From assembly GCA_017499595.2 (NCBI GenBank), contig CM039002.1, positions 1,860,001-1,924,000 on the forward strand: a DNA stretch of 64,000 bases. Direction: 5' to 3'. The position numbers were made by a program, and so were the translations under genes. Below, in pieces: positions 345-59,755 of the stretch. The stretch is from Psilocybe cubensis. Its lineage: Eukaryota. The notes under the pieces are model-generated. The model was not told where the DNA came from. It saw nothing but the letters and a program-made list of their open reading frames with translations, and made no database searches. Every line of letters starts with the position of its first letter. Positions within the stretch are counted from its first letter, which is position 1.

Positions 345-3300
345 GCTTTAAAGCTGCACTAGTAGCTGCCACCTATTTCATTATATTATAGGTAACTGCC
401 TGCAAGGTGATATGTAATTTTGCTTAGAACTTTTAATGATGTATTTCATAGAATGTCCAAGGCATTTTATTCTCTGTATAGAGGTGTATTTCATTGCACA
501 TTAACATGTATTTTATTTGATTCTTGTATGGATTTTATAGAATATTTCATTGCATATAGAATATGTTTTCATTCTAATTTTATTCTACTTTCTGATCATT
601 TTATTACATTTTTCATTTGATTTTATTACTTGTTGGCTTGATTTCAATTCAATTAAAGGCTATTCCATTCTACTGTTCTCAACAATTTTATTGTGATTTC
701 ATTTCTATCTTAAAGTATTTTATTAGCTGTAGGGAATGATTTTATTATAATTTTATATCTAATCTTATGATTATTTAGACTTGATAATCCTATACTAGAT
801 TGATTAGTGCATGCTATTTTTGGCCCAGGAACTCGGACTAAATATATTAGAATTAGGGCTAATAGCCATTACATCAGAGCCCTATTCCTGCCCCTTCCCT
901 TAGCTGCTGGCTCTATAAATAACACTCATCCTATGCTACTTTTGTGCATTGCTGGCAATAGATTGGGCACTTTTGGGGGCATTTCTGGACCGTTTCCCTT
1001 GGTTTTTTTAGTAGTCCTATAGTTTTAAAGTGTCCTAATCCAAATCTGAAATCAGAATTGCAATATTTTTACTCATTATTGTGCAATTAAGCATACAATA
1101 TTTTTGTCAAAAAGCGCACCTTTAATAGCACCCTCCAGAGGTTAGTATGCATTATTTTGACTATGCCATTATTTTTTATTTATGTTAGACGGAGTACATG
1201 CCAAGTTTCAGCTTAATTGGAGCAGTGGAACCTATTCAATTAGAATATATATCCTACCCCTCCTTCTACCCCTTGTATGAATGGCTTCCTGATTAGATAA
1301 ATTTAGATCCAGCTAGGGCTGAGTAGGTGCCTATTATACTAATTTTTAGAGCCCTTAATCTTGCTCAAATTCCAAGATTAAAGGATACCATCCCTTATCC
1401 ACCCCAGATCTTGTATATTTTATTGTGGCCCAGATTAATCATTTCTAGCACATATAGGTATATAAATCTGCTCTAAACCATGGCATATACACATTAAATA
1501 TCTTTGAAATAATCTACATAAAGGGGAACACCTTGGTTATGAGGCTAATAAGAAGGTATTAGATATGCAACATAATATGACCATATCACCGCTTATACTT
1601 TACCAAAATGCACATACCTTACATTCACAGATAGCTATCAAGGTCCTCTACATATTATATTAATGCTGCTAAATGGCTAGAACGCTTAACAAGATAGTAC
1701 AAAAAGAATAAGCAATATTGTCCAAAAATAACAAAAAAGCAAGATATAATGAGCAAAAAAACATCTAAAAAATAATAAAACAGTATATCTGTGTAGCCCC
1801 AAATGACACCTATCTGTGGTATATGGAATCATAGAAATCCAATGAGTCTGAGCTGAGATATGTCAAAATGTATCTTGGAAAAAGGCCAAAGAGGTGACCA
1901 CAAACAAAGCATAAATAAAGGCCAATATCCATCCAGGTCTTTAATGGGTTCTTTAACACCTTTCTTTCCATATCTCAGCAACCACTGGTCCAATGCACAG
2001 CATTCTTGATGCTCTGGAAAGCTACATTTTGTGGCTATACTATCCTGCTTTTATATTTCCTGATCTTGAATATTTATATATGGTAAATGCGAAAATACTG
2101 TGCATTTTGATAAAGAATGGTATTCTCTCTGCAGTATTTCATCTAATGGATGGATCTTTTTAAGCACTGAGAATAATATTTAGGAGGTATCTATAGGTAT
2201 CTGTAAATGTCAAGAATATGATTTATGACAAAGTATTTGTAGAAATATGGCCTGATCAATAATCTACCATACCTCTCCCCATACCCTCTCTTAAATCAGT
2301 ATGTTTCCTTGTTGCAGAGGAAATTCAAGAGTAAATTTTGGACTCTATGTACTATTAGTAGTAGATTTACATGTTTTTAATGATATGAAAGCCCATCCTA
2401 TGGCATAAAAAATACACAAGTTCTAGAGGGAATGGGGATGGTACTCCTCAATCTTAGAATTTAAGCAGGATTAAGGGCTCTAAAAATTAGTATAATAGGC
2501 GCCTACTCAGCCCTAGCTGGGCCTAAATTTATCTAATCAGGAAGCCATTCATACAAGGGGTAGAAAGAGGGATAGGATGCATATTCTAATTGAATAGGTT
2601 CCACTGCTCCAATTAAGCTGAAACTTGGCATGTACTCCGTCTAACATAAATAAAAAATAATGGCATAGTCAAAATGATGCATACTAACCCCTGGAGGGTG
2701 CTATTAAAGGTGCGCTTTTTGACAAAAATATTGTATGCTTAATTGCACAATAATGAGTAAAAATATTGCAATTCTGATTTCAGATTTGGATTAGGACACT
2801 TTAAAACTATAGGACTACTAAAAAAACCAAGGGAAACGGTCCAGAAATGCCCCCAAAAGTGCCCAATCTATTGCCAGCAATGCACAAAAGTAGCATAGGA
2901 TGAGTGTTATTTATAGAGCCAGCAGCTAAGGGAAGGGGCAGGAATAGGGCTCTGATGTAATGGCTATTAGCCCTAATTCTAATATATTTAGTTCGAGTTC
3001 CTGGGCCAAAAATAGCATGCACTAATCAATCTAGTATAGGATTATCAAGTCTAAATAATCATAAGATTAGATATAAAATTATAATAAAATCACTCCCTAC
3101 AGCTAATAAAATACTTTAAGATAGAAATGAAATCACAATGAAATTGTTGAGAACAGTAGAATGGAATAGCCTTTAATTGAATTGAAATCAAGCCAACAAG
3201 TAATAAAATCAAATGAAAAATGTAATGAAATGTTCAGAAAGTAGAATAAAATTAGAATGAAAGCATATTCTATATGCAATGAAATATTCTATAAAATCCA

Positions 3301-3883: not shown

Positions 3884-6800
3884 TCACCCCCTCTCTAAGG
3901 CACATTTTTCACAATGTGCACATGGATGGGTTAGTTTAGAGGGTTTAAGAAGAGGAAGAGGTTCATTAAAGTTAATAATAGGAGTGAAAGAAAGTCTATC
4001 AAAGGTCATAGCAGAAATCCTTCTAGGTGCTAAAGGATGTTTGGCATGGAAGTCCTTGATAGCCTTAGAAGCATTTTTCAAATGCTTTGCAGGCTCCCAA
4101 GTGCATTCTTCATTAGGATAGTTCTTCCACTTGACCAAATATTGAAGTTTGTTTCTAAAAAGTCTGCTGTCCTTGATAAATTCAACTTCCCACTCAGGAT
4201 TTTCTCCTTGAATGACAGGAGGTGGTCTAGAAGGAGGCTTTCTTCCTACAATATCTGGGTGATAAGGTAGAAGTTTAACCACATTGAACACTGGATGGAT
4301 TTTCATGGTAGATGGCAGCTTAAGCTCATAGGCATTAGGGCTAATAACTTTGGTAATTTTGTAAGGCCCATATCTTTTATCATCCAATTTCTTGGAGGGC
4401 CTATCAGTTTTGAGGTCCTTGCCATCCAACCATACCAAATCCCCAACTTTGTACTGAGTTGGAGTACCTCTGTGTCTATTATAGAATTTAGCCATATCAT
4501 CAGCAGCTTTTCTAAGTGCAGACTCTGCTTCTTTCCTGGCTTCTTCCATATTTTTCACAAAGGTATCCACAGTGTCCATTTTACTATCTCTAAGGGGTTC
4601 AGTGCCCATTCTGGGATGTCTGCCATTATTAAGCATGAATGGTGTCTGCCTGGTTGAAGCCTGAACTCTGTTGTTATAAGAGAATTCAGCTAGAGCTAAC
4701 CATTCAACCCAATCATCTTGTCTATGGTTTATAAAGAGTCTAAGATACTGCTCAATTTCTTGGTTAATTCTTTCAGTCTGACCATCAGTTTGGGGATGGT
4801 AGGCTGTAGATGAGGCTGTCTGGATACTAAGTATTGAGTTGAGTTCTTTCATAAACCTTGAGACAAACTGTGGACCTCTATCACACAGAATTTTAATGGG
4901 TAAGCCATGGTGTTTCCAGACATAATCTCTGTATAGTCTGGCTGTCCCTTCAGAAGTGACTTCATCTGTAGTAGGGATAATGTGGATCATTTTACTAAGT
5001 CTATCCACAACCACCATAATGGCATTATACCCTTGACATTCTGGTAACCCCATAATAAAGTCCACAGAGATGCATTGCCAGACATCAGAGGGAATCTCAG
5101 TAGGAATTAAAAGGCCAAGAGGTTTGGCTGGAAATGTTTTGGTTCTGTTGCATCTATCACAACCTCTGGTATAGGCTGCAATAAAATGTGACATTCCTGG
5201 CCACCAATAATTCCTAGAGACTAGCTCAATTGTCTTCCATTTCCCTGGATGTCCAGCAATGAAGGCATCATGGTGCAGTTCCACAATCTTTCTTCTAAGA
5301 TCTTTGTCCTTGAGAACATACACCTTCCCCCTGTAGAGAATAAGGCCTTGTTCTTCTGACCATTCCTGTCCTTCAATCTTCTTGGTAGAAGATTTCTTGA
5401 GCTCCTGAACTGCCTTGACCACCTTTTCATCCATCTCCTTAGCTTCTCTAATCTTTTTAAGAAGATCATTTTCTGCACCAGTAATGGTAGCATGACCCTG
5501 CTTGAGAGCCTGGATTTTAAAGTAGGAAGGTTTGAGGAGAACTACATTTTGATTATCATTCTCTCCCTTTTTATGATCTGGTCTCCTAGACAAAGCATCT
5601 GGCTTAAGAGATCTTTTACCAGGCCTATGATGAAGAGTAAAATCAAATCTGGACAGGAAAAGTGACCATCTGGCTTGCCTTCTGCTGAGCTTTTGGGCAA
5701 CCATAAAGTACTCTAAGTTTTTGTGGTCTGTCCAAATCTCAAAGGAATGTTGGGTTCCTTCAAGATAATGTCTCCATTCATCTAGTGCTCTGATAATAGC
5801 CAGCATCTCTTTATCATGGATCTCATAATTCCTTTCTACTTCAGATAGACTCTTAGACATAAAGGCTACAGGATGCCATTTCCCATCTGATCCTTCCTGA
5901 GATAAAACAGCCCCAGTAGCATAATCTGAACTGTCTGCTTCAACTTTATATGGCTTGTTATCATCAGGGAAAATCAAGACAGGTGAAGAAGTGACTTTCT
6001 TCTTTAACTGGTCAAAGGCTTCCTGCTGTCTAAGACTCCATCTCCAGACTGTTCCTTTCTTTGTCAATTCATGAAGGGGCTTAGCAATGTCTGCAAAATC
6101 CTCTATGAACCTTCTATAAAAATTAACAAATCCCAAAAATGATTGGACATCCTTGATATTTTTAGGTTCAGGCCATTTAGAAACTCCCTCTACCTTGACA
6201 GGATCCATCTCAATCCTGCCTTGTGAAATGATTAGTCCAAGATATTCAATCTTTTCCTTTTCAAATTCACATTTCTCTGCTTTAAGGTAGAGTTTGTTCT
6301 GTTCTAAGATTTGCAGAACTTGCTTGACTACCTCTCTATGATGATCAAGAGTCTCAGTGAAAATTAAAATGTCATCCATGTAGACAATGACAAGATTTCC
6401 ATCAATGAGCTCAATAAAGATATCATTCATCATAGTTTGGAAGGTAGCAGGACTATTGGTTAAACCAAAGAACATGACCAATGGTTCAAACAGCCCTCTA
6501 TTGGTTCTAAAGGCTGCTTTTCATTCATCTCCCTTTTTGATTCTGACATTGTTAAATCCCCACCTAACATCAAGTTTGGTAAAGTATTTGGCTTTGCTGA
6601 GTTTGGTGATGATGTCAGAAATCAATGGAAGGGGGTAGGAGTTCTTGATGGTCATTTCATTCAGTTTCCTATAGTCCTGGACAAGCCTAAGAGATCCATC
6701 CTTCTTCTTGACAAAGAATACAGGGGAGGCTATAGGTGACTTGGAGGGTCTAATCCTGCCAGACTTCAGATTTTCCTCTAAAAAGGCATCAAGTTCCTTT

Positions 6801-9358: not shown

Positions 9359-9804
9359 TGTCAGGGCAACACTATAATTAGTGTGACAAGGCCACCAACA
9401 AAGATCAAGCAAGAGAGAGAGAGAGCAGAGGAAGAGTAAGAGAGTAGAGAGAAAACAAGAGAGTGAGAGAGACTCAATGATTCTAAGAGATCACACCAAT
9501 GATAGTGGATATCCTAAGAGATTGAAGCTGAAGCTACAGCTACCTACAAGTCCAGTATTTATACTCTACAGCTATTCTAGAATATTCCCTACATTACATC
9601 ATAAAGGAAGGTTAAAGAATAAAAGTGACATCATATAGAAAAAGGATGAGTAAGACTAGGAATCATATAGAATTTACTAGAAAGAAGTGGAGCAAGAAGG
9701 CTGTGATGAAAGAAATAAACTATCTAATCAGATAATTGATAAGATAATGAAAGGATAAGATAATTCTGTGAAGATAAAGAGGGGAAACTGGAGAAACCCT
9801 GACA
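9359..9804 (-). repeat. Gypsy 5' LTR
   Basis: Direct repeat of 3438-3883, contains TATAAATA. Confidence 0.96.
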
Positions 9805-16506: not shown

Positions 16507-17747
16507 TAAGAGATCATCTTGGATAGCATTGTCAATCAATCCCAATTTTTCAGACCCAGATAGAACAGTTTGTGAGTCACAGTTAGAATTTAGCAAATTG
16601 GACTCATTTGTTCCAATAGAAAGGCCGGGATTATGCATCAAATCACAGTTGCTAGTTGTAGAATCTGATGATTGAGATGCAGAAATTGCATTATAAAGGC
16701 GGCAATGGTTGCAAAGGCAAACAAGGGAGAATGGTATTGCTCCAAAGCTGTTTAGTGATTGTTTGCAGTGACTAGCAACAAGAGCACCCGGGACAATGAC
16801 TTTTGTTACATCAATAAGGATGCAAGTTGGTAATATATTGATATCATTGTACTTCTTAAGGCCATGTAATTAAGATATCTTGCCTTTAGCAATAATTGTT
16901 GTGTTATCCTGACTATAAAAAAAGATACACATCAATGGATCAAGCAAAGATGGTAGGGAAGTTGGAATTTGAAGCTTATGGAGCTCTTGGTAGATGCAAA
17001 GTGATGCATAGCCATCAGTAGCAGCATATTGAATCTGCTCCAGGGACAAAATTAAACTCTTTCAAGCAGTTTTGACATGTTTAACGAGTCGTTTCTTGAG
17101 TAAAATAGCACAAAGGTTGGTGAGACTGGCTTTAGAAATATTTGATATAACATTCCATTCTTTGGCGTATTTTGCAAGATCAAGCACTCCAACAAAGGCA
17201 AGTGGCAAGTGGCATGACTCTTGTAAATGTGTGAGATCAGAAGCAACCATTTGTCCCAATTTTAAAATGCGTAGGTGTGCAAAAAAAAGCTTCAGCTGAT
17301 AAGACGGTTCTCCTTTTGCTACCATCTACTGATCTATTAAAATATCATATTAGCATAGTGTCTGCGGTTTAGAAAATTTAATATTTACATATCTGGAATA
17401 GGTAGATACAATTGCAATGTGCAATCTGAATAATTGCTGTTTTACTGTGCTGCTCAACTTGCCTGTAATTGGATACTTCAAAGTTCCATTCTGTTTTAAA
17501 CCCAATAACTATGATGCCGGTGTCCTGGGGCACATTGTTCATGATAGAACGAGCTGCATTGTCAATTGATTGAGCAGTGTCTTTTGGAAGAATAATTACT
17601 TCCGGAGGGAATTCAAAAAGATCCAAGTTGCTATATTTTTCTGTAATGCCTTCTTGCAGAGACGGGAAGCAGCGCTCTAGATAGTTTTTGTTGCTGATAT
17701 TATCAGTGTAAAATACACAAGGTGGAGTGTTTCCATAGAGGGCAAGA

Positions 17748-18039
17748 TAATGGAAAAGTAATCTCAGTACGATAGAAACGAACTTATATATTTAGTAGAT
17801 ACTACCTAATGGAAAAGTAATCTACGTTAAGAGTAAGTAAGATTGAACAGAACACAAGTAAGTTAGCTGGCACACACCTCAGTACGATAGAAACGAACTG
17901 AAGTGGTGCCATTTCGTCAAAACGAATATAAGTAAAATTGTCTTGAATGTAACAAATAACCGAAGATGAATGTAACACAAATTGTCCATAGTCCAGACCG
18001 CCGTCACGAGGACGCGCCGGTCAGTTTGCCAATCCAACA
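17748..18039 (-). repeat. Copia 3' LTR
   Basis: Direct repeat of 22714-23005, next to PPT at 18040-18049. Confidence 0.95.
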
Positions 18040-18046
18040 CTCCCCC

Positions 18047-21000
18047 TCAAACTGCGGCGCGTAAACCCATTGCGTTCGCAAAGTGCTTTGCTTTCGCGCT
18101 CGGAAGAGCCTTCGTGAGAGTGTCAGCAGTTTGGTCATCGGTAGGGCAGTAAATCAACTTGATAGAGCCGGAGTCGATAATGTATTGAATAAAGTGGTAA
18201 CGAATATTGATGTGCTTTGTGTGTGCGTGATATTGATCTCCGTGAGCGAGAGCGATGGCCGATTGATTGTCGCCGTAGAGTGTGGTGGGGTGTACTATCT
18301 TGATATTGAGTGCGCTAAAAATATTGTTAACAAGGCTGCGTAACCACATGGCTTCCTTTGAGGCGTGGGTAGCGGCTACGTATTCGGCCTCGGCTGTCGA
18401 CAGGGTGACCAATTCCTGCTTTTTCGACGACCACAACACAGCTCCTCCATCCACCACAAACACGTACCCCGAAATCGCCCTCCTGTGGTCTTGCGACGCC
18501 CCATCTGCATCCACGAAACCCACCATGTCCCTTTTCTCACCGCCATACGTCAATGCCAAGTCTTGGGTGCCCTTGAGGTACCGAAAAATCTTCTTCACCG
18601 CCTCCCAGTGAACCCACGCTGGGTTGTCAACGAATTGCGCCACGGTATTTGTCGCAAACATGATGTCGGGTCGCGTTCCCATTGACGCGTACATGAGCAA
18701 GCCCACTGCTTCACAATATGGTACGTTTTTCATCCGTGCAATGTCTGCAAGAGCGGTCGGGCATTGTGACCTGGCAAGTGGCTGACACGGATCCATAGGG
18801 ATAGCACTTGGTTTCAGATCGTCGAAATTGAAGCGTGTCAAGATGGTGTCGATATACGCATTCTGGGAGATGGAAATGGTCTTGTTGGTAGTGTTGCGAG
18901 TGATCTTGAATCCGAAAAGCCATTTGCATTCACCCAGGTCCGTAATCTTATATTTCTTGTTGATTTTGACCTTAAATTGCGCAATTAGTGGCATTGAGCT
19001 CCCCGTTACCAGACAATTGTCAACGTGTACCCCCACAATGACGATTTTGCCGTTCACCATCTTCACGAATACACCCGGATCCGCCTCCAACACCCTAAAC
19101 CCCAACTCCCCCATTGCCTTTTTCAGCGCCTCGTACCAATTCCTCGCATCCTGCTTCAATCCGTAGAGTGCCTTGTGAAGGCAATACACGTAGCGACATG
19201 AATCCGTTGCAAATCCGCGTGGCTGCTCGAGGTAAATGACCTCGTCTTCTTCCAGGTTCGAGTTCAGGAACGCGCTATCAAAGTCGATGCTTTCGAGTGG
19301 CCATCCGTTGCGGTTAGCGAGTGCAATCAGGTATCGGAAGGTGGGCAGGCGTGCAACGGGTGCGAAGGTCTCGGTGTAGTCCACGCCATGGATTTGGGTA
19401 AATCTGCGTGCGACGAGACGAGCCTTGTACTTGTCAATCTCGCCTGCGGCATTCTTCTTGATGCGTAGGACCCATTTGCTGCTGACGACGTTAGCGTTTG
19501 GTGGGCGTTCAACCATCTTCCATGTCCCGTTCGCCTCGAGTGATGCAAGCTCGGCTTTGATCGCGGCCTCCCATTTTGGCCAGTCGGATCTCCTTCTCGC
19601 TTCGTCGTATGTCGGGTTCAGCCCCTCAGCTGCATCCATTGCAGTTGCCATCGCAAAATCCATCGCCTCAACAATGTCCCATGCATCCGCCAACAGCCCT
19701 TTATTACCTGCACCCTCAACACTGGCCTCGCCTTCCTCGTCCTTCTCGGAAACCTCTGGGACAACCTGGAGACTGCGCGGGAACTGGCTTGCTGCAGGTA
19801 AGTTGCTAACTTTTGCAACTCCCTGCCAAATGTCTCTGACGTACGCGCTCTCCTTTCGCAGCCGTGTACTTCGACGTAGCTCGGATTCTGCTGTAGTAGG
19901 AGTGTTGGTGTTGGGTTTGGGAATGTTTGGGGACATGTAGCGCTTGGAATCATCCTCACGCTCGTTGTCTGACTCCCCCTCAAGCGGTGTGTGTTCCAGT
20001 ACTACCTCATCTGGCATAAATCTGACACTTCGCTCAACTAACACAGATCTCTTTTCTGTATAGTACACCCGGTGGCCGTGGCTTTCTTCATCAAACCCGA
20101 CCCACTTTCCTTGCTTTGCTCGACCATCCAGCTTCGAAGCGCTAGTATCATGCACCCACACGTCACAGCCCCATGGTGGAATGTTCGAAATGTCTGGCTT
20201 TTCACCCGTCAACACCTTGTATGGTGTTGCTTCCCCAAGCGCCTTTGTTGAGGTGCGGTTCTTCAGATAGACCGCATGATGCATTGCCTCACCCCACAAA
20301 AACTTTGGTAGGCCACTGTTGTGTCGCATTGCACGCACCTTGTCGAGGAGTATGCGGTTGAGGCGTTCCGCAACGCCGTTGTATTCAGGGGTGTCATGTA
20401 TGGTGAGTCTTCGAGTGGTGCCGGCCGCCTTGAGATGGGCTGAGAATTCATTACTTAGATATTCTCCCCCTCGGTCACTGTGGAGTTTCTTAATGGGGGC
20501 GTCAAACTGGGTCTTCAGCCAGGCTTCAAACTCGCAGTAGTGCTGGAAGACCTCGTCCTTGGTGTGCATCAGGTAAATCTTTGTGAACCGAGTGTAGTCG
20601 TCTGTGAAGCTGACAAAGTAAGACTTATGGTTAATAGTCTCCACAGGTGCATCACCCCACACATCCGAATGGATCTCCTGGCCAAGTTCCGTGGCCTGCT
20701 CCTCCACCCGCTCTCTTGCTATTGGCTTACGATGGGCCTTCCCCCACTCGCACAATGGGCAAAACGACGGCTTGCTGTCCTCATCAAGCTCGACTCCAGT
20801 CACCAGGCCCTTCTTGACGAGCTTCCGCGCTGCATCATGGCTGATGTGCCCCATCCGGCGGTGCAATTCATCAATGGTCAACACCTCAATAATGCGCCCA
20901 GCGTATCCTGCCACTTCTGGACGTGCTGTGAACACACGGTAAAGTCCGTTCTGCACCTCAATTTTCCCCAGCATCTCACGCGATCTGTTGTAGATCCGAC

Positions 21001-22608
21001 AGAGTGCTCCTGAAAATACGATGGTGCCGCCTGCCTGTGCAATTCGGCTGATGGAGACCAGGGTAACCCCCATCTTTGGGGCATAAATGACATCACGGAG
21101 CAACTGCTTTGTTGCAGGCCCGTCACCGTTAGGTATGTCAACATATATATCTCCCTTGCCAGTCGCAAAGAACTGACGCTTATCGGCAGCTGTGATAGGC
21201 TTCGGGTCGGTCTCAACAAATTTAACGAAGCAATGTCGGTGTCCGGACATGTGGCGTGTAGCACCCGAGTCATACAAATCCATATCGACGAGGGTCTGCT
21301 TTTGGGTAAGGGTGGCAGAGGTGAATGTGCTGTGGGCTTCATCTGTAGCAGTGAGGGACAGGACTGCTCAGGAGGTAGGTGCATAAATTTTCTCCCATTC
21401 ATCATCAGAGTCATCGGAGTCTGACACAGATTGCAGACCTGGAATCTCTTCATCATTGTCCTCATCACTGGAGTCACTAACTGACTGGAGGGCTGGCATG
21501 CCATCCAAGTCAGCATCAGAGATGGGATCATACTCGGAGCAGCTGGAAATGAGCTCGAGAATGTTGGCGTCGGAGAGGGAGAATTCGGATGAGGAAGAAC
21601 AGGTGAGTTCCTCAGACAAAGCATCAAATTCATCATCTGACGTGGTCATGGCCATCCAACCTTCCTCGTCCCCATCATCCTTTGCACTAGCCGCTGTCTC
21701 CTTCCCTTTCCCCTTGTCGCCTCCGCCTCCACTGCTCTCCTTGCCCTTTCCCTTGGGCTTTGAGCCACTCAGGCCTTGCCCTGCTCTACCGCCGCCCTCC
21801 GCCCAGCACTCGGACTTGAAGTGCCCACGCTTCTTGCAGTTGTAGCACTCAACATTCTTCTTCCATCCACCCTTCCTCTCACGTGAACCTCCCGCATCTC
21901 CATGAAAGGCCGAGTTTTCTTCTCGTCTGCTGGTACCCTTCTGGCCCAGTGCACGACGGTCATACTCTTCGGTCACCATGTGCATCAACTCGTCAGCGGA
22001 TAAAGTTGTGCCAATGACGCTTGACGTGGCGTTTACGGCTGATATGTAGGGGTCGTAGGAAGGTGGGAGAGATCCATGATGATTGCGTAAAAGTCGTCAT
22101 CCGTTGGCGGCTGTCCCATGGCTGCCAAATCTTCGCGCATCAAGCGCAACTTGTTGAAATGTGCTTGCACATCTCTACGCTCGGGGCAGCGTTCCTGCTG
22201 TAGCTGGCGTCGCAAATCCACGGAGACCATCCGTGATTTGTTCTCGAAGTCTCTTGCGAGAGCATCCCAAATATCGAAGGCAGATCCCTTGCCTTGAATC
22301 TTCATAAAATGTGAGTCCGAAATCGTTGCCGCAATCTGTTGCTTAACGATTGCCTCTCCTTGGTTCCAGGCCTTTAGCTCCTTTCGCCATTCCGCATCAA
22401 GAACTGCCTGCTTGTTAGTGAGCGGCTGATTTGGGACATGAGTGATGGGGTCCGGCGGAGCTACTGCAGTGCCGTCGACGTGCTCGAGTTTGCCGCGCGC
22501 GTCGATAGACCATAAAAAGCGTTGCTTGTAAATGACCCAGTTCTTGCCCGCCTCGTCAAGCTTGGGGATCTTCATGAAGTCATTGCTTAGTTTAAAAATA
22601 GAAGACAT
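18047..22608 (-). pseudogene. Copia gag-pol polyprotein with a frameshift (~22075) and a premature TGA (21368-21370)
   Basis: CYNCKKRGHFKSEC knuckle; protease YDSGATRHM; GAG-pre-integrase LHRRMGHIS; integrase HSDVWG, LHSDRGGEY, NGVAERLN; RT KYKARLVA, LHKALYGLKQ, HVDN (decayed YVDD); RNase H FVDAD, STAEAEY, ADTLTK. Confidence 0.93.
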
Positions 22609-22700
22609 GGTTGACAGTAATAAGTGGAGAGTTTTGCTGAGGGTAAATAGGTCACTGGTTGGTTGAGTAGAATGAATGCTGGATTGATTCAGTGTCTCTT

Positions 22701-22713
22701 GGGGCCCATAACC
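22701..22713 (-). promoter_or_regulatory. Copia primer binding site (internal half of initiator tRNA-Met type)
   Basis: GGTTATGGGCCCC directly after the 5' LTR, resembling the Drosophila copia/Ty5-type PBS. Confidence 0.85.
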
Positions 22714-23005
22714 TAATGGAAAAATAATCTCAGTACGATAGAAACGAACTTATATATTTAGTAGATACTACCTAATGGAAAAGTAATCTACGTTAAGAGT
22801 AAGTAAGATTGAACAGAACACAAGTAAGCTAGCTGGCACACACCTCAGTACGATAGAAACAAACTGAGGTGGTGCCATTTTGTCGAAACGAATATAAGTA
22901 AAATTGTCTTGAATGTAACAAATAACCGAAGATGAATGTAACACAAGTTGTCCATAGTCCAGACCGCCGTCACAAGGACGCGCCGGTCAGTTTGCCAATC
23001 CAACA
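22714..23005 (-). repeat. Copia 5' LTR
   Basis: Direct repeat of 17748-18039, followed by the PBS. Confidence 0.95.
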
Positions 23006-26000
23006 CAAGAGATTCAGCCATAGCATTCAGAGCAAGTTGTGACTGTGATTGGGTTTTAGTGGCAACCAAATTGCAGGTACATATTTCACCCTTTTCATTT
23101 GTTACTGTCAATAATCCAGAAAAGACTTGCTTGCCATTAACATGAATAATGTGTTTTGTTATCTAAAGTCATGTATAATATTAGTATTGAAGACAGAGCA
23201 AATAAAATATATGTACCTTATGGCTATAGTCAAGTACACATATTTTATCAGTAAGCATGCTTGTATGTTGGTTGAAATCATGTTCGTGCTTCTTAATAAA
23301 GTTATTGTACATGTTGCAAAGCCATTTGAAGCTTGGAATGAAGCCATGACAACCATTTGGACTTGTGTCGTGAAATGGTAGAAATGCTTTGTGCCTCTCA
23401 CCCTTTCAGGCTTTTAACAAGTGGCAATGAATATTGAGATGCTTGAGGTATTGGAGATGTAATTGATCATATTTTAACAAGTGTTGAACATAAAGCGCAT
23501 TGGCAAATTGTTTGCTACCAATACCATTTTGGAAAAACAACCTCATCCATTCAAATAGAGTCTTCAATACTGCATTTTGATGGCTTAATTGTGCTGGAAA
23601 CTCAGCTGCAAGAGCAGGCGGAAGAATTTCTAGGATACAAAGATCCCAGCTTCAAAAAGTAATTGTATTTTTGTAAGATTTAGGGTGAATACATGAACTA
23701 CAACAGTAACAATAACCAATTATCCAAAATATTGAGTCTATGTCTATGTATCTTTGGGGGGTCAAAATTTCACTATGACATTGAAGTGGTTTATAGCAAT
23801 TTGGACAAGGAATGCCCGCCAAGCATAATGAATGAGGATCCCAAAGATAAAAGCAAGGGAGATAGAGTTTGCTAGGAGATAGACCACGTTCTTGGAAAGT
23901 AAAGAACACCAATCTTTGTGGAAACCAGAAAGTGCTGTGGTCAGCATATAGTGGAGGAAGATTTTTGGTATCACAGTAATGTGAATTTTCAAGATGCATT
24001 TTGAAAGGCTTAGCTAGCCACGGTGCAAGCAGACAGCATTGCTGGGTTTTTCTTTTGTCTTTTTTAAAATTATTTCCCTTGCCATCACAATTTTGATCAG
24101 CATCTTTTTGTCCGAGTCCATCCCCAATACCATCTACACCTTTATCATCTTCATCCGTAAAATCCACAATCCGGTAAGAGTCTTGATTCGGAATAACTTT
24201 GCTAGCCAATAGTGGAATGTTTTCATCAGTATGTTGAATAGTATGCAATGTATATAAGCTGCTTGATAAGAGCTGAAGAAAGGGCGCAGGTAGAAATAAC
24301 AGGGTAGGCTGTGTTTGTAACGTCGACACAATTAAAGATTGAGATAAGGAGGATGCACAAGGTAGAATGTGCAGTTGACAATAACTCGATCCAGTGGATG
24401 ATGTTTGTGCTGATGCAAAAACAGTAGCCCATGCTCTGGAAGAATTTTTACGGGCTTTAGTGTCCTCCAGTTGTTGAGTTGATAGAGTCTGACATGCACT
24501 GTATAAGCAAGAAGTATATACACGAATGCAGAATTACTCACTTTGGATGTGAACTCTACTGACACAGCAACCTGTGGTACCTTTTGTGGCCTACTGCAAG
24601 GCCTTTTCTCTACAACCTCTCTGGACAGCTACCTCTCCTTTTGTTTATAGCCTGTTCCGGGGGGGGCGACCCAGTTGACAACAAGGGCCATAAACCACGG
24701 CCTTAACAATTTGGACTTGAGCGCTGTTGGACTCATTCCTACTAGAGGGCGCATTTCTGGTTGCACAAGACTCTGTATCCTCAGATAGATTTGAGTCTTA
24801 GTAGATAATTGTTAATGTCAAGTAATAACCAAAATAGAAACCACATATTTAGTACATACCGTTTTTTATGCATATTGTGACATTGTACAAAGAACCACTA
24901 TCAGAGACATGATCATTAAGTAAAAGAAACTGAGAAAGATCAAACAAGACTAAACAGACCTTACTGAACCAGTTTGTATGTCACTCATAATGACATTTTC
25001 CCACTTGGAGTCTAGATCTATCTGAGTTGACTCTCTGACATATTCTGTAGGGTCTCTGAAGGAAATATCTATTGATTAGATAAAAGAAGGCAAGGGGGGT
25101 ATGTATGCGGATTTGTTATACAAGTAGTGACAAGGCAGAGAGTTAAGAGTGAGACACAACTACTGGCGTTCTAACTTTGCATGCGCGGTTTCACTTCCCA
25201 ATGGTCCATGGTCCATACACATGGGATTACATAACATTATTGATTGTTTTTTTTCAAATTCAGAATTGGTATCGCTATCCGACATAGACATGGATAGCAA
25301 GCCATATTATCAATGGGGATGTATTTGGACCTGTTTTATAGGATTGTGATTGTTTTTTAAGGTTTTAACTTTGTCAATGTTATTTGTTTAATATATCAAA
25401 TGTATATACACAATTAAAAGACATAAAACCACTGTGAAACAATAAAAACAACTATTTATTTAGTAGATGGCCAGAACTAGCTCAATTTAGTATCTGGCTG
25501 GCTTAGTAAGTGCACATAACCAGGCATAGAAATTTTGGCCAATACTGGCATGTTAAACAGGACAAAAGCTAGCAGAAAGGCAGGGATAAAAAAAAGACTT
25601 GTTTCTCTTTTTGGTTGAACCTTGTAACCTACACTACTAATCTACATATTGATTTGATTTTTAATTGTTAGGTAAGTATTCATTGACAAGGAAATAAATT
25701 TCTAAAGTGGTTATGTTCTTATGCTCTAACCATTATTATTTACCTAGCCAGAGTGCCAGCATATCAATTCCAGTGCTGGGTACATAGTGCTAATGCTCAC
25801 CAAAAAGTATTCTAACACCATCTGAGAGCAACAACTCAAAGTCTATATAGACTAAAAAGTTACCTCACATGAAACATCTCATTAAAAAGGCAGGACACAA
25901 TAAAATGTACCTGTGGAAAAAATCCCATAGCAACCCACTGATGCTTTATCCACTGCTTTAGGCCCCTTGAATACTCTGCTAGACAATTTATACCTCCCAT

Positions 26001-55311: not shown

Positions 55312-58300
55312 TTACGGATTATATATCGCCCAGGGTTGTTCTGAGGTAGGCATCGGGCTTTCCCATTTCCATTCGTTCGGCTGGTAATACGCGCCCTCCC
55401 CTCCGTCTATATCCTTCCATAGACCTAATCGCGTAGGATCCGAGGGAGGCTCTTCCTTTTTGACCTCGCTAGAGGTTGATGAGAAAATATGGTTCACATC
55501 TGCCTCGTGGTTGGACTCTGGGCTAGGGTTTGTCGAGGACGACGATACCAAGTCGGGAGTCAACGCCTTCACATCATCATCCGCGCCAAAGGAGAAATCA
55601 AAGAATTCCTCAAAGTCAGCTGGCACAGGTTCCTCCGAAGGGACTTGCCCGTAGCCTTTCAGAATCATATCCAAGGTATCTGAAATATCCGTCGTCAACT
55701 CGGTCTGACTTTGACTCTTGATAAAGTCTGCCATCTGTTCAAAGAACGCGGTAGCTTCTTCTTCAGTCTTGATGTTTTCGACCGCCTCCTTCTCTTTCAA
55801 CATCTCCTCACTTGGCTGCTGCTCCCACTCTGTCTTGGCGCGTTTTGGTGGAGAAGGCTCATCTACAACAACAGAAGAAGACGAAGGTAGCCCATTATCC
55901 CCCGTGGCAAATTCATCTTCTTCGCGAGCACGTTTGACATTGCCACTGCTTGTCGATGCCACAGGTTGAGACGACTCAGTCGTTGACAGAGGGACAACAG
56001 GTGGCACTCCCTGCGCCTTTGATGTTTTCCGCTTGGGTTGAGGTGGCGCTTTAGATTTCTGAGGCGCCGCACGTGTTTTAGGAGATTTCCCAGCTGGGGG
56101 AGACGAAGCGACTGCAGTCGGCGTTTGCGCGCTCGAAACCGGAGTTGAGACGGTTGGTACGGGAGCGGGAGAAGGCGTCGAAGCAGCAGCCACACCAGGT
56201 GCTTGTGGTGGTTTGGGTACCCTCTTGGCCGGGGGTTGTTGGAGGATAGGGGGAGGGCGAAGGGCAGAGGTCATCTGCTGTGGTGACGGGCCGAGATTGG
56301 GAGGTTGCTGAGGTATAGGCATGCGGTTCTGCATCTCGGGTGTACCCATCATGTTCTGCTGGGGGATGGCAGGATTCAACATGGGAGGCTGTTGAGAAAT
56401 TTGCTGCTGCTGCTGTTGCTGTTGCTGTTGTGCTTGAGCTTGAGCTTGAGCCTGCTGCTGCTGTTGTTGTTGTTGTTGCAATTGTTGCAAGTGCATTTGC
56501 ATATGTGGATTAGAGTTTGGCAAACGCTGCCGGATGTTGTTGAACCAATTGGCAATAATATCACAAATGCGTTGCAACTCTTGAGACATGTTGCGCAGAG
56601 TGTCAAAAGTGACGATAAAGCGAGGGTTGGAAGTCGATAACATGGACCGTTGTTGTTGAACAATAGCGACCTTTTTTTATGTTATTCAAAAGGTTGAAAG
56701 AAAGATAGCAATATACAACTTACAATGGACACCAACTTCTTGATAAGTTCATCGTTCTTTATCAAAGTTACAATCATTTGGATTTTCTGTTCTGCATCCT
56801 GGCACTGGCGGAACATGGTCTCTAAAAGTTCATTAAACTCGTGACGCTGTTCCCCAGGATTGTCTAAAGTGGGCAGTTTAGGGATATCTGCAAAAGAAAA
56901 ATAATAAGCAATGACATTAACAAAGAAAAAAAATAAAAAGATTTACGCATTGTAAGATAATCATTCTTCATCCTCTGGTAAATATTATCAGGTCCAATGC
57001 GATTGGGACCAGGCACTCGCGACTGATTCAACCCTTGAGCCTGCGCACCGGCATTCAACAACTGCTGTTGCATCTGTTGCTGTTGCATCTGCTGTTGCTG
57101 TTGTTGCTGATGTTGTTGCTGCTGTTGCTGTTGCGCGAGTTGCTGCTGCTGCAAGAAATGCTGTTGGCGGGCGGCAGCCGCCATCGCCGGATTAAGCGAA
57201 GCACCGAGCATCTGTCCTCCAGGAGCTCCAGGGTTCTGCCCAAACGACGGCGACTGACCAATACCCGGCGCGCGTGGGATCTGCTGCGCACCGTTCTGGT
57301 CTGGCACCTGTGGTGGCATACCCCCGGGCGCATGGAGAGCCTGGTTGACATTGCGTAGCCGCGCTTGGAACGACTTTTGCTCCTGGGCCGCGCGTTGCAG
57401 ATGCGCACGGTTAGTTTCCACAAACTGGATCGTCTTCTCATCGATGCCTTGCGCGTGCAGGTCTGCAACGGATACGTGTGCCATCTGGATCATGTTTTGC
57501 ATCTGCTGCGGGCCCAGGCGCGCCAACATCTGACTCTGGAAGTTGTTCGAGGACATCATCTGTATCTTTTTGGAGGTTTCAAACGCCTGTGTAGTGTACC
57601 ATTGCTCGAACGCGGTCAGATATTCTTTGTAGACATGAGCTAGCTGTTGCGCGATGGCCGGGCCTGATTTGGCCGGTTCTGCTTCAGTGCCAGGGAATTG
57701 CACAAACCCAAGCCGAGCACCAATAACGCTCCACCAGTTGTCCTTCTGGTCAACCTTGATTGCGAATTAGATAAAGGAGATACTCCTGCACCAAGAATAC
57801 ACACCTTATTAACTCCGCCCTCTTTAATCACCTCTACATGCAGGCGATATAAATCGAGTGGGCGATTGTCAACTACAAGTAACCTCGGCTCAATCTTGAT
57901 ATTGCGCTTTGCACAAAACGCCTTGTACGCCGCGTCAAACCGAGGCTTGTCGAACGGCATGAGAGTTCCCATATTGGAAGGAACCACACCCATAACATTT
58001 GGCTGAGACGGTCCCGCTACGGGCGGTTGGGCACTTGACGGCATGGCAAACTGGCCAACACCACCGACGCTTATCGCCGGCTGCAGCGGATTGAAAGGGC
58101 TTCCGGCCTGTTGTGGCCCCGGCTGTCCAGGATGCTGTGGGGTCGGACCAGACCGAGGCGGCACAAAACCCGGGTTGCCCCCCTGTGGTTGCTGTTGCGG
58201 AAGAGATGGCGTTGGCTGCATCGCTCCCGCCTGAAGTTGTTGCTGGTTCAACGGGTTGCGGACCATCGGAGGGCCATCAAATGATGGCGTCGGGTTGTGA

Positions 58301-59755
58301 TGCGGGCCCATCCAAGACTGCTGGCCTGGGGCAGGACCACCAGCGCTGGGGTTCGCATTGGCGTTCACCTGCGACATCTGAGCTTGTTTGTTCCTGTAGA
58401 AGGAGGGAGGGAAAAAGTCAAATCAAAACCAGAACGAATGAAAAATATAGCGACTGACTGCAGTTGCATCTGCGTGTATCCATTGATCATTCGCGCAAGG
58501 ATTTCTTTCCTCTTTACCAGGTCGTTTGTAAACTCCCTATGTTTTGTTGCGATTGCCAACTCTTGAGGGGTGCCCCGGACAGCGTTCAGCTGCTGAGTGG
58601 CATTTTGAAGCACAAGTTCCATTTGTGCGATCGCGTTGCGGGCTTGAGTGATGCGATTACCAGCTTCAGCGAGACCAATCCGATTAGGCATATTAGCGGG
58701 GTTCATCATCGGCCCCGGCTGCGGTTGCACGCCGGTAGGGGGCTGGGGCATGTTAGCGGGATGAGGCGATGGACGGCGGAGCGCCTCGTTGCTCATCCCA
58801 GGCGACGAAAATATATCACCTGAAGATGAATGGTTCATCCCATTAGCAAACTGTTGTTGTTGTTGATGTTGCGCTTGTTGCGCTTGTTGTTGCTGTTGTT
58901 GCTGTTGCTGTTGTTGCTGGGCATGCTGAGCCTGTTGTTGAGCCTGTTGTTGAGCCTGTTGCTGCACTGCTTGCTGCTGCTCACGCAGCTGGTTGAGGTG
59001 CTGTTGTTGCTGCAGCTGTTGCTGGGTAATCTTGACCGGACCGTTCTGAGGCTGCTGGTTCTGTGCCATGTTGATCAGCTCAAGCTGGCGGCTGACGCTG
59101 GGATTTTGAAAAGGCATGCGAGGTTGATTGGCGTTTCCCGAAGACATTGCGCCCATATTCGGAAAGCCAGCCTGGACATGATTGGGTTGAGGGTGGACGG
59201 AGGAGGCATCGTGGAAGGAAGGTTGGTTGGCGGCGGATCCACCGAGAACAGCGCCTGCTGGATTCATCTGTGGCATCCCGAATTGCTGTTGCTGCTGCTG
59301 CTGGTATTGCTGTTGCTGTTGTGCTCGGGCAGCATGATTCTGCTGAGAGATGGACTGGGAGCGTTTCATAATCTCGGCGAACTATGGGACGAGCAAAGAG
59401 ATAAAAAGATAGGAGGAACGATCCCGGGTAAGAAAAGGGGAGAGAGAGAGAGAGAAAGAAAAAGAGTACGAACCTGGGGAGAGTTGATGTCGGGGGGCGC
59501 ACCTGAGGTCCTGTTGTTGAATTGCTGGTTCATCTGCTGGATCTGCTGCCAGACACGGGTCTGGTCCATGATAGACTGGGGGCCACCTTGAGAGTTGTCC
59601 TGCATTTGCTGTTGGGCCTGGTGTTGGATCTGCTGTTGCTGCTGTTGCTGCTGCTGTTGGGCCTGTTGCTGCTGTTGTTGGGCCTGTTGCTGCTGCTGCT
59701 GCTGCTGGAGGAGGTTGCCGTTAAACATGGGATACTGGGGCAGACGATCTGCCAT
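55312..59755 (-). CDS. Large Q-rich ARID-domain protein (coactivator/chromatin factor)
   Basis: Several polyQ tracts; ARID-like RPLDLYRLHVEVIKEGGVNK|VDQKDNWWSVIGARLGF..LAHVYKEYLTAFE; helical middle region; acidic/aromatic C-terminus. Confidence 0.85.

Follow-up and report, generated by a model that had tools for sequence, protein, structure and literature searches.

This study revealed that the long terminal repeats (LTRs) of a Ty1/copia retrotransposon of Psilocybe cubensis end in a joined copy of two short sequences that also lie apart further upstream in the same LTR, separated by a GT..AG segment. We refer to the split sequences as A and B and to the terminal copy as A'B'. In a fungal Ty1/copia clade, whose members are probably Agaricomycete elements, we consider it likely that A'B' represents the terminal repeat R, or R together with a short U5, and that it is rewritten from spliced leader RNA. 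The start site, the splicing events, the poly(A) site, the target of strand transfer and the share of replication cycles that follow this route are what we infer from the DNA sequences described below.

The window, a stretch of 64,000 nucleotides, carries the element on its minus strand at positions 17743-23010 including the target duplication, and all features of the element given below lie on that strand. The 5' LTR (22714..23005) is 292 nt long, starts with TG, ends with TA and is delimited by the primer binding site (PBS) on one side and by the target duplication on the other. The 3' LTR (17748..18039), defined by LTR alignment, is also 292 nt long. The two are identical at 284 of 292 positions (97.3%), and the 8 differences are all transitions, the pattern expected of cytosine deamination or methylation-linked decay. 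The 5-bp target-site duplication TCTTG is found upstream at 23006..23010, where it is confirmed by an empty site in sequencing run X11, and downstream at 17743..17747. The copia-type PBS GGTTATGGGCCCC (22701..22713) abuts the 5' LTR and recurs in relatives as the same word or a one-base variant. We take it to match the anticodon arm of initiator tRNA-Met; tRNA genes were found neither in the 64-kb window nor in 23 related loci. The polypurine tract GAGGGGGAG (18040..18048) stands directly before the 3' LTR, as it does in related loci, and is overlapped by the pol stop codon (18047-18049).

The gag-pol coding region (18047..22608), delimited by open reading frames and Pfam matches, is split into at least four reading-frame pieces (22608-22033, 21988-21368, 21636-20878 and 21283-18047). 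Its Pfam domains occur in the order Retrotran_gag_2, zf-CCHC, Pol_BBD, gag_pre-integrs, rve, SH3_retrovirus and RVT_2. The integrase precedes the reverse transcriptase (rve at residues 203-295, RVT_2 at residues 585-830), and the element has two direct LTRs and a short target duplication, all of which identify it as Ty1/copia. The rve integrase and the copia-type RVT_2 exclude a Penelope-like identity, and the rve-type integrase together with the absence of recombinase families among the Pfam matches excludes a DIRS-like one. The nearest named relatives of Pol come from Agaricomycetes (Hypsizygus, Pleurotus, Gymnopilus, Trametes, Mycena and Hermanssonia), and a comparison of Pol with a viral contig collection gave no match. 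The proteins of this element are those of an ordinary Copia. No further copy was found within the window by blastn or tblastn, and an Rfam scan returned a single match at chance level (E = 0.26). Elsewhere in the window, CAG/CAA-type triplet runs at about 58900-59710 (minus strand) and about 57090-57130 appeared as noise in the repeat scan and may belong to a glutamine-rich coding region.

With regard to the layout of the LTRs, both copies carry the TATA-like word TTATATT (22891..22897 in the 5' LTR, 17925-17931 in the 3' LTR) 32 nt before A. The 22-nt A, the proposed exon 1 and transcript start (22844..22865 and 17878-17899), is followed by intron 1, a 56-nt segment of the form GTGTGT...TAG (22788..22843 and 17822-17877), which is the segment missing from A'B'. 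Next comes B, a proposed micro-exon 2 of 16 nt that is pyrimidine-rich and ends in AG (22772..22787 and 17806-17821), and then an A/T-rich spacer of 21 nt (22751-22771 and 17785-17805). The 37-nt A'B' closes the LTR. In the 5' LTR (22714..22750) it is the proposed R(-U5), and in the 3' LTR (17748..17784) it is the proposed acceptor of minus-strand strong-stop DNA. Within the 3' LTR, A' occupies 17784-17763 and B' occupies 17762-17748; A and A' are identical at 22/22 positions and B and B' at 15/15, and the last 37 nt of the LTR equal A (17899-17878) plus B (17821-17807) once the intervening 56 nt are taken out. An offset of +4966 converts these positions to those of the 5' LTR, whose layout is identical and in which A (22861) and B' (22724) each carry a single transition. 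The order of A, GT..AG segment, B and A'B' reported in the first-pass annotation proved correct to the base in both LTRs, and the second GT..AG segment that it had described, 59 nt long and ending at the first G of the PBS (22771-22713), is also present. This proposed intron 2 (22713..22771), delimited by sequence and by comparison with relatives, runs from a GT through the spacer and A'B' to an AG, which is formed in the window 5' LTR by the last base of the LTR and the first base of the PBS.

The cut point between A and B is ambiguous by 2 nt, AG closing both A and the skipped segment, and only one of the three possible registers gives GT..AG. The A word occurs four times in the window with up to 3 mismatches, compared with 0.00 occurrences expected (0/100 shuffles), and the B word occurs four times with up to 2 mismatches, compared with 0.20 expected, a count reached in none of 100 shuffles. 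A chance origin of the A and B repeats is excluded.

A Pol alignment search of metagenome contigs gave 562 matched stretches, 538 of which were confirmed, and the best 80 loci were taken. These 80 loci and the window were scanned in two ways. An exact scan looked for uninterrupted words of the kind that two upstream words would form if 35-100 nt between them were left out, and a junction probe joined the 12 nt before a GT to the 10 nt after an AG lying 40-80 nt further on, allowing up to 2 mismatches. Across the 81 sequences, the probe yielded 32 GT..AG matches on the Pol strand and none on the opposite strand. Seven of the 32 were dropped as tandem repeats outside LTRs (L022, L043 and L052), and the remaining 25, with L031 added by hand from the exact scan, make up the set of 26 LTRs used below: 24 LTRs in 22 of the best 80 loci (44-67% Pol identity to the window element), plus the two of the window. 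Thirteen other dinucleotide pairs produced 0-11 matches each, some of which are the same events 1-2 bases off register. A survey of relatives for terminal joined copies had been suggested beforehand, along with the prediction that A/A' and B/B' would co-vary between families; the boundaries of A and B coincide with GT..AG in 26/26 LTRs from 23 elements, and the co-variation was found.

Some of these loci are composite. In L017, the end of a split-type element (2505-2877) is inserted in the RNase H region of another Copia, whose Pol similarity resumes at 2873-3097. L019 holds two split-type LTR families about 600 nt apart (3967-4110 and 4680-4830): one element ends with its 3' LTR, and after it a different one opens with its 5' LTR and PBS, here the variant GGTTATGAGCC. 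The idea that contig ends might mark RNA ends was discarded, nine contigs having terminal overlaps of 55-127 nt that are typical of assembly cycles.

The LTRs of this set share a common anatomy. A TATA-like word lies 29-36 nt upstream of A, matching the pattern in 11 of the 25 LTRs that have upstream sequence and recognisable by eye as near-variants in others. The identity of A with A' begins with AGT or CAGT in 24/25 LTRs, after a CCTC-like run. This sharp onset at an initiator-like (C)AGT, about 30 nt past the TATA-like word, lends indirect support to the earlier proposal that transcription starts at A. A measures 17-33 nt (17 only where the contig starts inside A) and ends in CTGAG in 25/26 LTRs. 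Intron 1 is 49-61 nt long (median 52, n = 26 LTRs) and always lies on the Pol strand; its donor has G at +5 in 25/26 LTRs and reads GTGAG in 16/26. In its GT..AG ends, donor consensus and size, intron 1 has the form of a spliceosomal intron, and we take the size to be typical of the host group. The joined copy A'B' would be indirect evidence of its removal from RNA. B is 12-25 nt long, pyrimidine-rich and ends in AG, with GT as the next two bases in 26/26 LTRs. The spacer that follows has 8-21 nt, mostly with a word such as TAATATATA or TAAATA, and this A/T-rich word sits 0-3 nt before A'.

Measured from the GT that follows B to the AG that closes B', the proposed intron 2 spans 50-70 nt (median 56.5, n = 26). 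AG ends B' in 21/26 LTRs, and the five exceptions are all 3' LTRs that end at B' and are followed by flanking DNA. The spacer becomes shorter as A+B becomes longer (r = -0.62, 26 LTRs). The second intron put forward in the first-pass annotation gains support from the invariant GT, the AG, the size range and this length compensation. Its donor lacks G at +5 in 25/26 LTRs, and no clear branch word was found in it, the candidates being the CTGAG that ends A' and CTAAT/CTAAA in the spacer.

The distance from B' to the end of the LTR differs between families. The PBS follows B' directly in the window element, L001, L003, the second element of L019, L031 and L053. A further 8-11 nt of LTR are present in L010, as judged by the PBS, and in L017 and L072, as judged by the point at which two insertions diverge; about 51-59 nt are present in L009 (by PBS) and in L007 and L061 (by divergence). 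An acceptor AG that exists only in the 5' LTR, its G being supplied by the PBS, is a feature of the window family and some others, but many families have the AG of B' inside the LTR, followed by 8 to about 59 nt more of LTR. As a general way of sparing the poly(A) signal of the 3' LTR, the PBS-supplied acceptor consequently fails. U5 need not be absent in the model proposed here, in which A'B' may itself contain the poly(A) site.

The comparison between families carries most of the argument. Inside the 26 LTRs, A+B and A'B' are identical at 1060/1084 bases (97.8%). Between elements, the median identity of A+B is 57.7% over 276 pairs, a figure inflated by short global alignments. L002 differs from the window element at 9/40 positions in A+B and at 9/40 in A'B', with no difference between the two copies within either element, and the two introns 1 differ at 21/58 positions. 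Similarly, L001 and L003 differ at 10/37 positions in A+B and at 10/37 in A'B', again with none within either element. Given that A'B' tracks A+B across families, the copy must be renewed from A and B, and the only ready route of renewal would be reverse transcription of RNA lacking the GT..AG segment. To judge from these LTRs, homogenisation of A'B' is not perfect. L009 has one A/A' mismatch that is common to both of its LTRs, and L061 (2685-2870) has 4 mismatches in A and 1 in B. All four A mismatches of L061 are C/T or G/A, with T or A in the upstream copy, which looks like deamination-type decay of one copy.

We also identified processed derivatives of the layout. In L075 (1190-1300), A is joined to B and followed by a GT-led spacer and A'B', intron 1 being lost. 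In both LTRs of L043 (2780-2868 and about 9440-9500) and in L008 (1-129), A is joined to B and followed by U5/PBS only, both introns and the copy being lost. The form of L075 would be expected if intron 1 were spliced in the 3' LTR part of the template, and that of L043 and L008 if strong-stop DNA had annealed to the upstream A rather than to A'. These forms indicate that spliced RNAs of such elements do get reverse transcribed. L043 and L008 also indicate that the architecture can be lost and is not indispensable, their lineages transposing without it.

The three derivatives nest among split-type relatives in a tree of 81 RT-RNase H rows, which was built with a quick IQ-TREE run and carries SH-aLRT as its sole support measure. 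All 23 split-type rows fall in one clade of 49 rows (100% SH-aLRT), within groups that total 33 rows. The other ten of the 33 are the three processed derivatives, three LTRs without a clear layout (L034, L042 and L056) and four contigs without an LTR part. The layout was matched neither in another group of 16 rows nor among the 32 outer rows. The simplest reading of this distribution would be an old origin of the layout followed by later losses.

Parts of the window element were found in nine DNA sequencing runs, from three studies and under three organism labels, and among 14 runs looked at none on record as RNA contains it. Reads from DNA runs X1, X3 and X11 were mapped over window positions 22500-23100; X13, a possible RNA run, gave no mapped reads there, a result that has no bearing on expression. 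Presence of the insertion is polymorphic. In X11, 30 reads run from flank to flank across one copy of the 5-bp target (loose end 23006), and in X1 and X3 the junction of the 3' LTR with the flank is present. X11 also contains a diverged full-length relative elsewhere, at about single-copy depth. Several LTR variants of the family of the window element occur in the three runs, and no DNA copy without intron 1 was detected in them, no joint skipping 22788-22843. In the majority variants, B (22782-22784) and B' (22723) shift together, yet they differ at two positions, and the majority change in A (22858) has no counterpart in A' among the variants listed, which are unphased. These family variants are mild evidence that renewal of A'B' is not perfect. 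In addition, nine reads of X11 connect 22822, at 22 nt within intron 1, directly with 22750, where A' starts, and leave out 71 nt; this joint may stem from an LTR deletion variant or a diverged copy.

These features can be accommodated by the following scheme. Transcription would begin in the 5' LTR with the opening base of A, and the leader would lose two short spliceosomal introns. Intron 1 would lie between A and B; intron 2 would open with the GT that follows B, take in the spacer and A'B', and close with the AG at which B' ends. Along with the introns, the leader would lose its A/T-rich, poly(A)-like word. The 5' end of the RNA would then read A-B-(U5)-PBS, and a tRNA-fragment primer at the PBS would give a short minus-strand strong-stop DNA, anti-(A-B). 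This DNA would pair with the unspliced A'B' near the 3' end of the RNA, just past the A/T-rich poly(A)-like signal, and be extended through the spacer, B, intron 1, A and U3. Both new LTRs would receive their introns from the 3' LTR region and a fresh A'B' from the spliced 5' exons.

The scheme has a cost, in that the splice sites of intron 1 are identical in the 3' LTR copy of the RNA and must stay unspliced there. The first-pass annotation had held that an LTR could keep its introns through reverse transcription; the scheme provides for their passage to both new LTRs, and by itself gives no account of how intron 1 escapes splicing in the RNA of the 3' LTR. Too little time before cleavage is our guess, and L075 indicates that retention sometimes fails. 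A low rate of cycles on spliced templates would be enough to hold A'B' equal to A+B, and for this reason the data do not make the spliced route the main one. A role of splicing in freeing the PBS from secondary structure was rejected, the predicted accessibility of the PBS being the same in spliced and unspliced RNA for 7/7 elements.

These limits give room to an alternative that we regard as unlikely, namely conventional replication with a long R. Unspliced genomic RNA would be copied, with an R that begins at A and reaches as far as a poly(A) site within or beyond A', and spliced RNAs would serve only as messengers; A'B' would have arisen once by aberrant strand transfer and been kept by occasional spliced templates or by recombination of co-packaged RNAs. 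The textbook route replicates such an LTR from unspliced RNA, which explains the retention of intron 1 at once. The weak donor of intron 2 also fits, as do the mismatches between the copies in L009, in L061 and among the family variants, and by-products such as L075, L043 and L008 are equally expected. Nevertheless, spliced-leader templates would be needed often enough to sustain 97.8% identity in 26 LTRs of families that have diverged to about 58%, and the A/T-rich poly(A)-like word in the leader would have to be ignored whenever full-length unspliced RNA is made. The GT after B and the intron-sized second unit in 26/26 LTRs also go unexplained unless splicing matters.

Far more doubtful is a start of transcription at A' without any splicing, the upstream A..B being duplicated protein-binding sites in U3 under selection, or the 49-61 nt having been skipped by template jumping of the reverse transcriptase. 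The A/T-rich, TATA-like word just before A' and the 2-nt AG microhomology at the cut could be cited for such an origin, but at 0-3 nt from A' the word is too close for a TATA-directed start. The skipped segment is strand-specific, with canonical donor hexamers, G at +5 in 25/26, an AG end in 26/26 and a narrow, intron-typical size, and selection on binding sites would not call for arbitrary, family-specific sequences that meet precisely at the edge of an intron. A spliced leader retro-duplicated just once in the distant past, without function and not part of any ongoing process, would be a permissible reading of the window copy taken alone, but it is scarcely credible and is ruled out because A'B' evolves in concert with A+B: A and B have diverged almost completely across 23 elements with A'B' tracking them in each, independent decay would have parted the copies, conservation extends to the splice signals of both units, and the shared layout and common clade argue against 22 recent independent duplications.

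The reading preferred here, in which the LTR end is a reverse-transcribed spliced leader that acts as a splicing-generated R, was the central proposal of the first-pass annotation and is supported by the comparative test. A more far-reaching version holds that reverse transcription is licensed by splicing in a large basidiomycete Copia clade: only RNAs spliced at their 5' end would gain terminal redundancy, the same intron would persist at the 3' end, splicing would also clear the leader of the poly(A) signal that the element carries, and R would be an exon-exon junction renewed in every cycle. We consider the case for this version to be evenly balanced.

Conventional LTR elements and retroviruses of the U3-R-U5 type have a short R with a poly(A) signal upstream of it. 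The elements described here resemble them in having LTRs, a putative PBS at the 5' LTR, a polypurine tract, a proposed first-strand transfer through terminal redundancy and a poly(A)-like signal just before a short R. In contrast, about 115 nt of DNA separate the proposed start from the R downstream of it, which would become the 5' end of the RNA only after the removal of two LTR-internal introns; the two proposed exons joined in this R are also present, apart from each other, in the U3-like part. Drosophila copia and yeast Ty5 are primed by an internal fragment of initiator tRNA-Met; they share with the window element what looks like the same kind of PBS right after the LTR and the Ty1/copia order of Pfam domains, and to our knowledge neither LTR introns nor a spliced terminal copy have been reported for them. 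In DIRS1-type elements, an internal complementary region equals the junction of two separate sequences and is thought to guide the rebuilding of the ends. The internal stretch that equals a junction of sequences lying apart elsewhere is thus common to both systems, but DIRS1-type elements use a tyrosine recombinase, have inverted or split repeats and do not make the junction by splicing.

Introns in retroelements have been described in other settings. Penelope-like elements, according to the account in PMC2377424 (citing Arkhipova et al. 2003), keep a 75-bp intron located 46 bp past the start site; transcripts occur with and without the intron, which seems to be important for expression. The likeness lies in a short intron kept through retrotransposition (PMC2377424), whereas Penelope-like elements have a reverse transcriptase with a GIY-YIG endonuclease and neither an integrase, nor a PBS, nor a joined exon copy in the DNA. 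Maize LTRs give rise to spliced transcripts with long introns (mean 1303 bp) and non-coding RNAs, and the authors state that this is, to their knowledge, the first evidence of LTR introns that bear on the biology of the elements (bioRxiv 10.64898/2026.05.08.723830). Introns within LTRs are the common feature (bioRxiv 10.64898/2026.05.08.723830); the maize LTRs are long plant LTRs, and that account of them proposes no role in strand transfer and describes no joined exon copy. In plant and Drosophila Ty1/copia elements, alternative splicing gives a gag-only RNA, likewise bringing the host spliceosome into the expression strategy (PMC5580714). That intron lies in the coding region, not in the LTR, sets the protein ratio and is not tied to R. 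The main text of a survey of fungal Copia elements contains no occurrence of introns or splicing. Our search of the full-text literature, which covered main texts, found no description of a spliced joined copy at an LTR end, one in an older subscription journal being possible. Judged by its sequence, the LTR of the window element appears to be a new form.

Passage of the genome through RNA is expected to strip retroelements of their introns, and R is taught as one contiguous stretch between the start site and the poly(A) site. If the reading preferred here is true, both rules would be broken: introns inside the LTR would be inherited, and R would be an exon junction that exists in the DNA only as a copy of the spliced product. 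A retroelement could then carry introns indefinitely, and the removal of the poly(A) signal from the leader by splicing would be a new way in which the 5' LTR is distinguished from the 3' LTR. The LTR would be a gene-like unit consisting of promoter, exon, intron, exon and intron, and genomic DNA itself would record start and splice sites, which would be useful for the annotation of fungal LTRs and for the dating of replication cycles. The transposon would also depend directly on the host spliceosome. In the basidiomycete Cryptococcus, stalled spliceosomes on transposon RNAs feed RNA interference, and such a dependence could, if true, bear on genome defence there.
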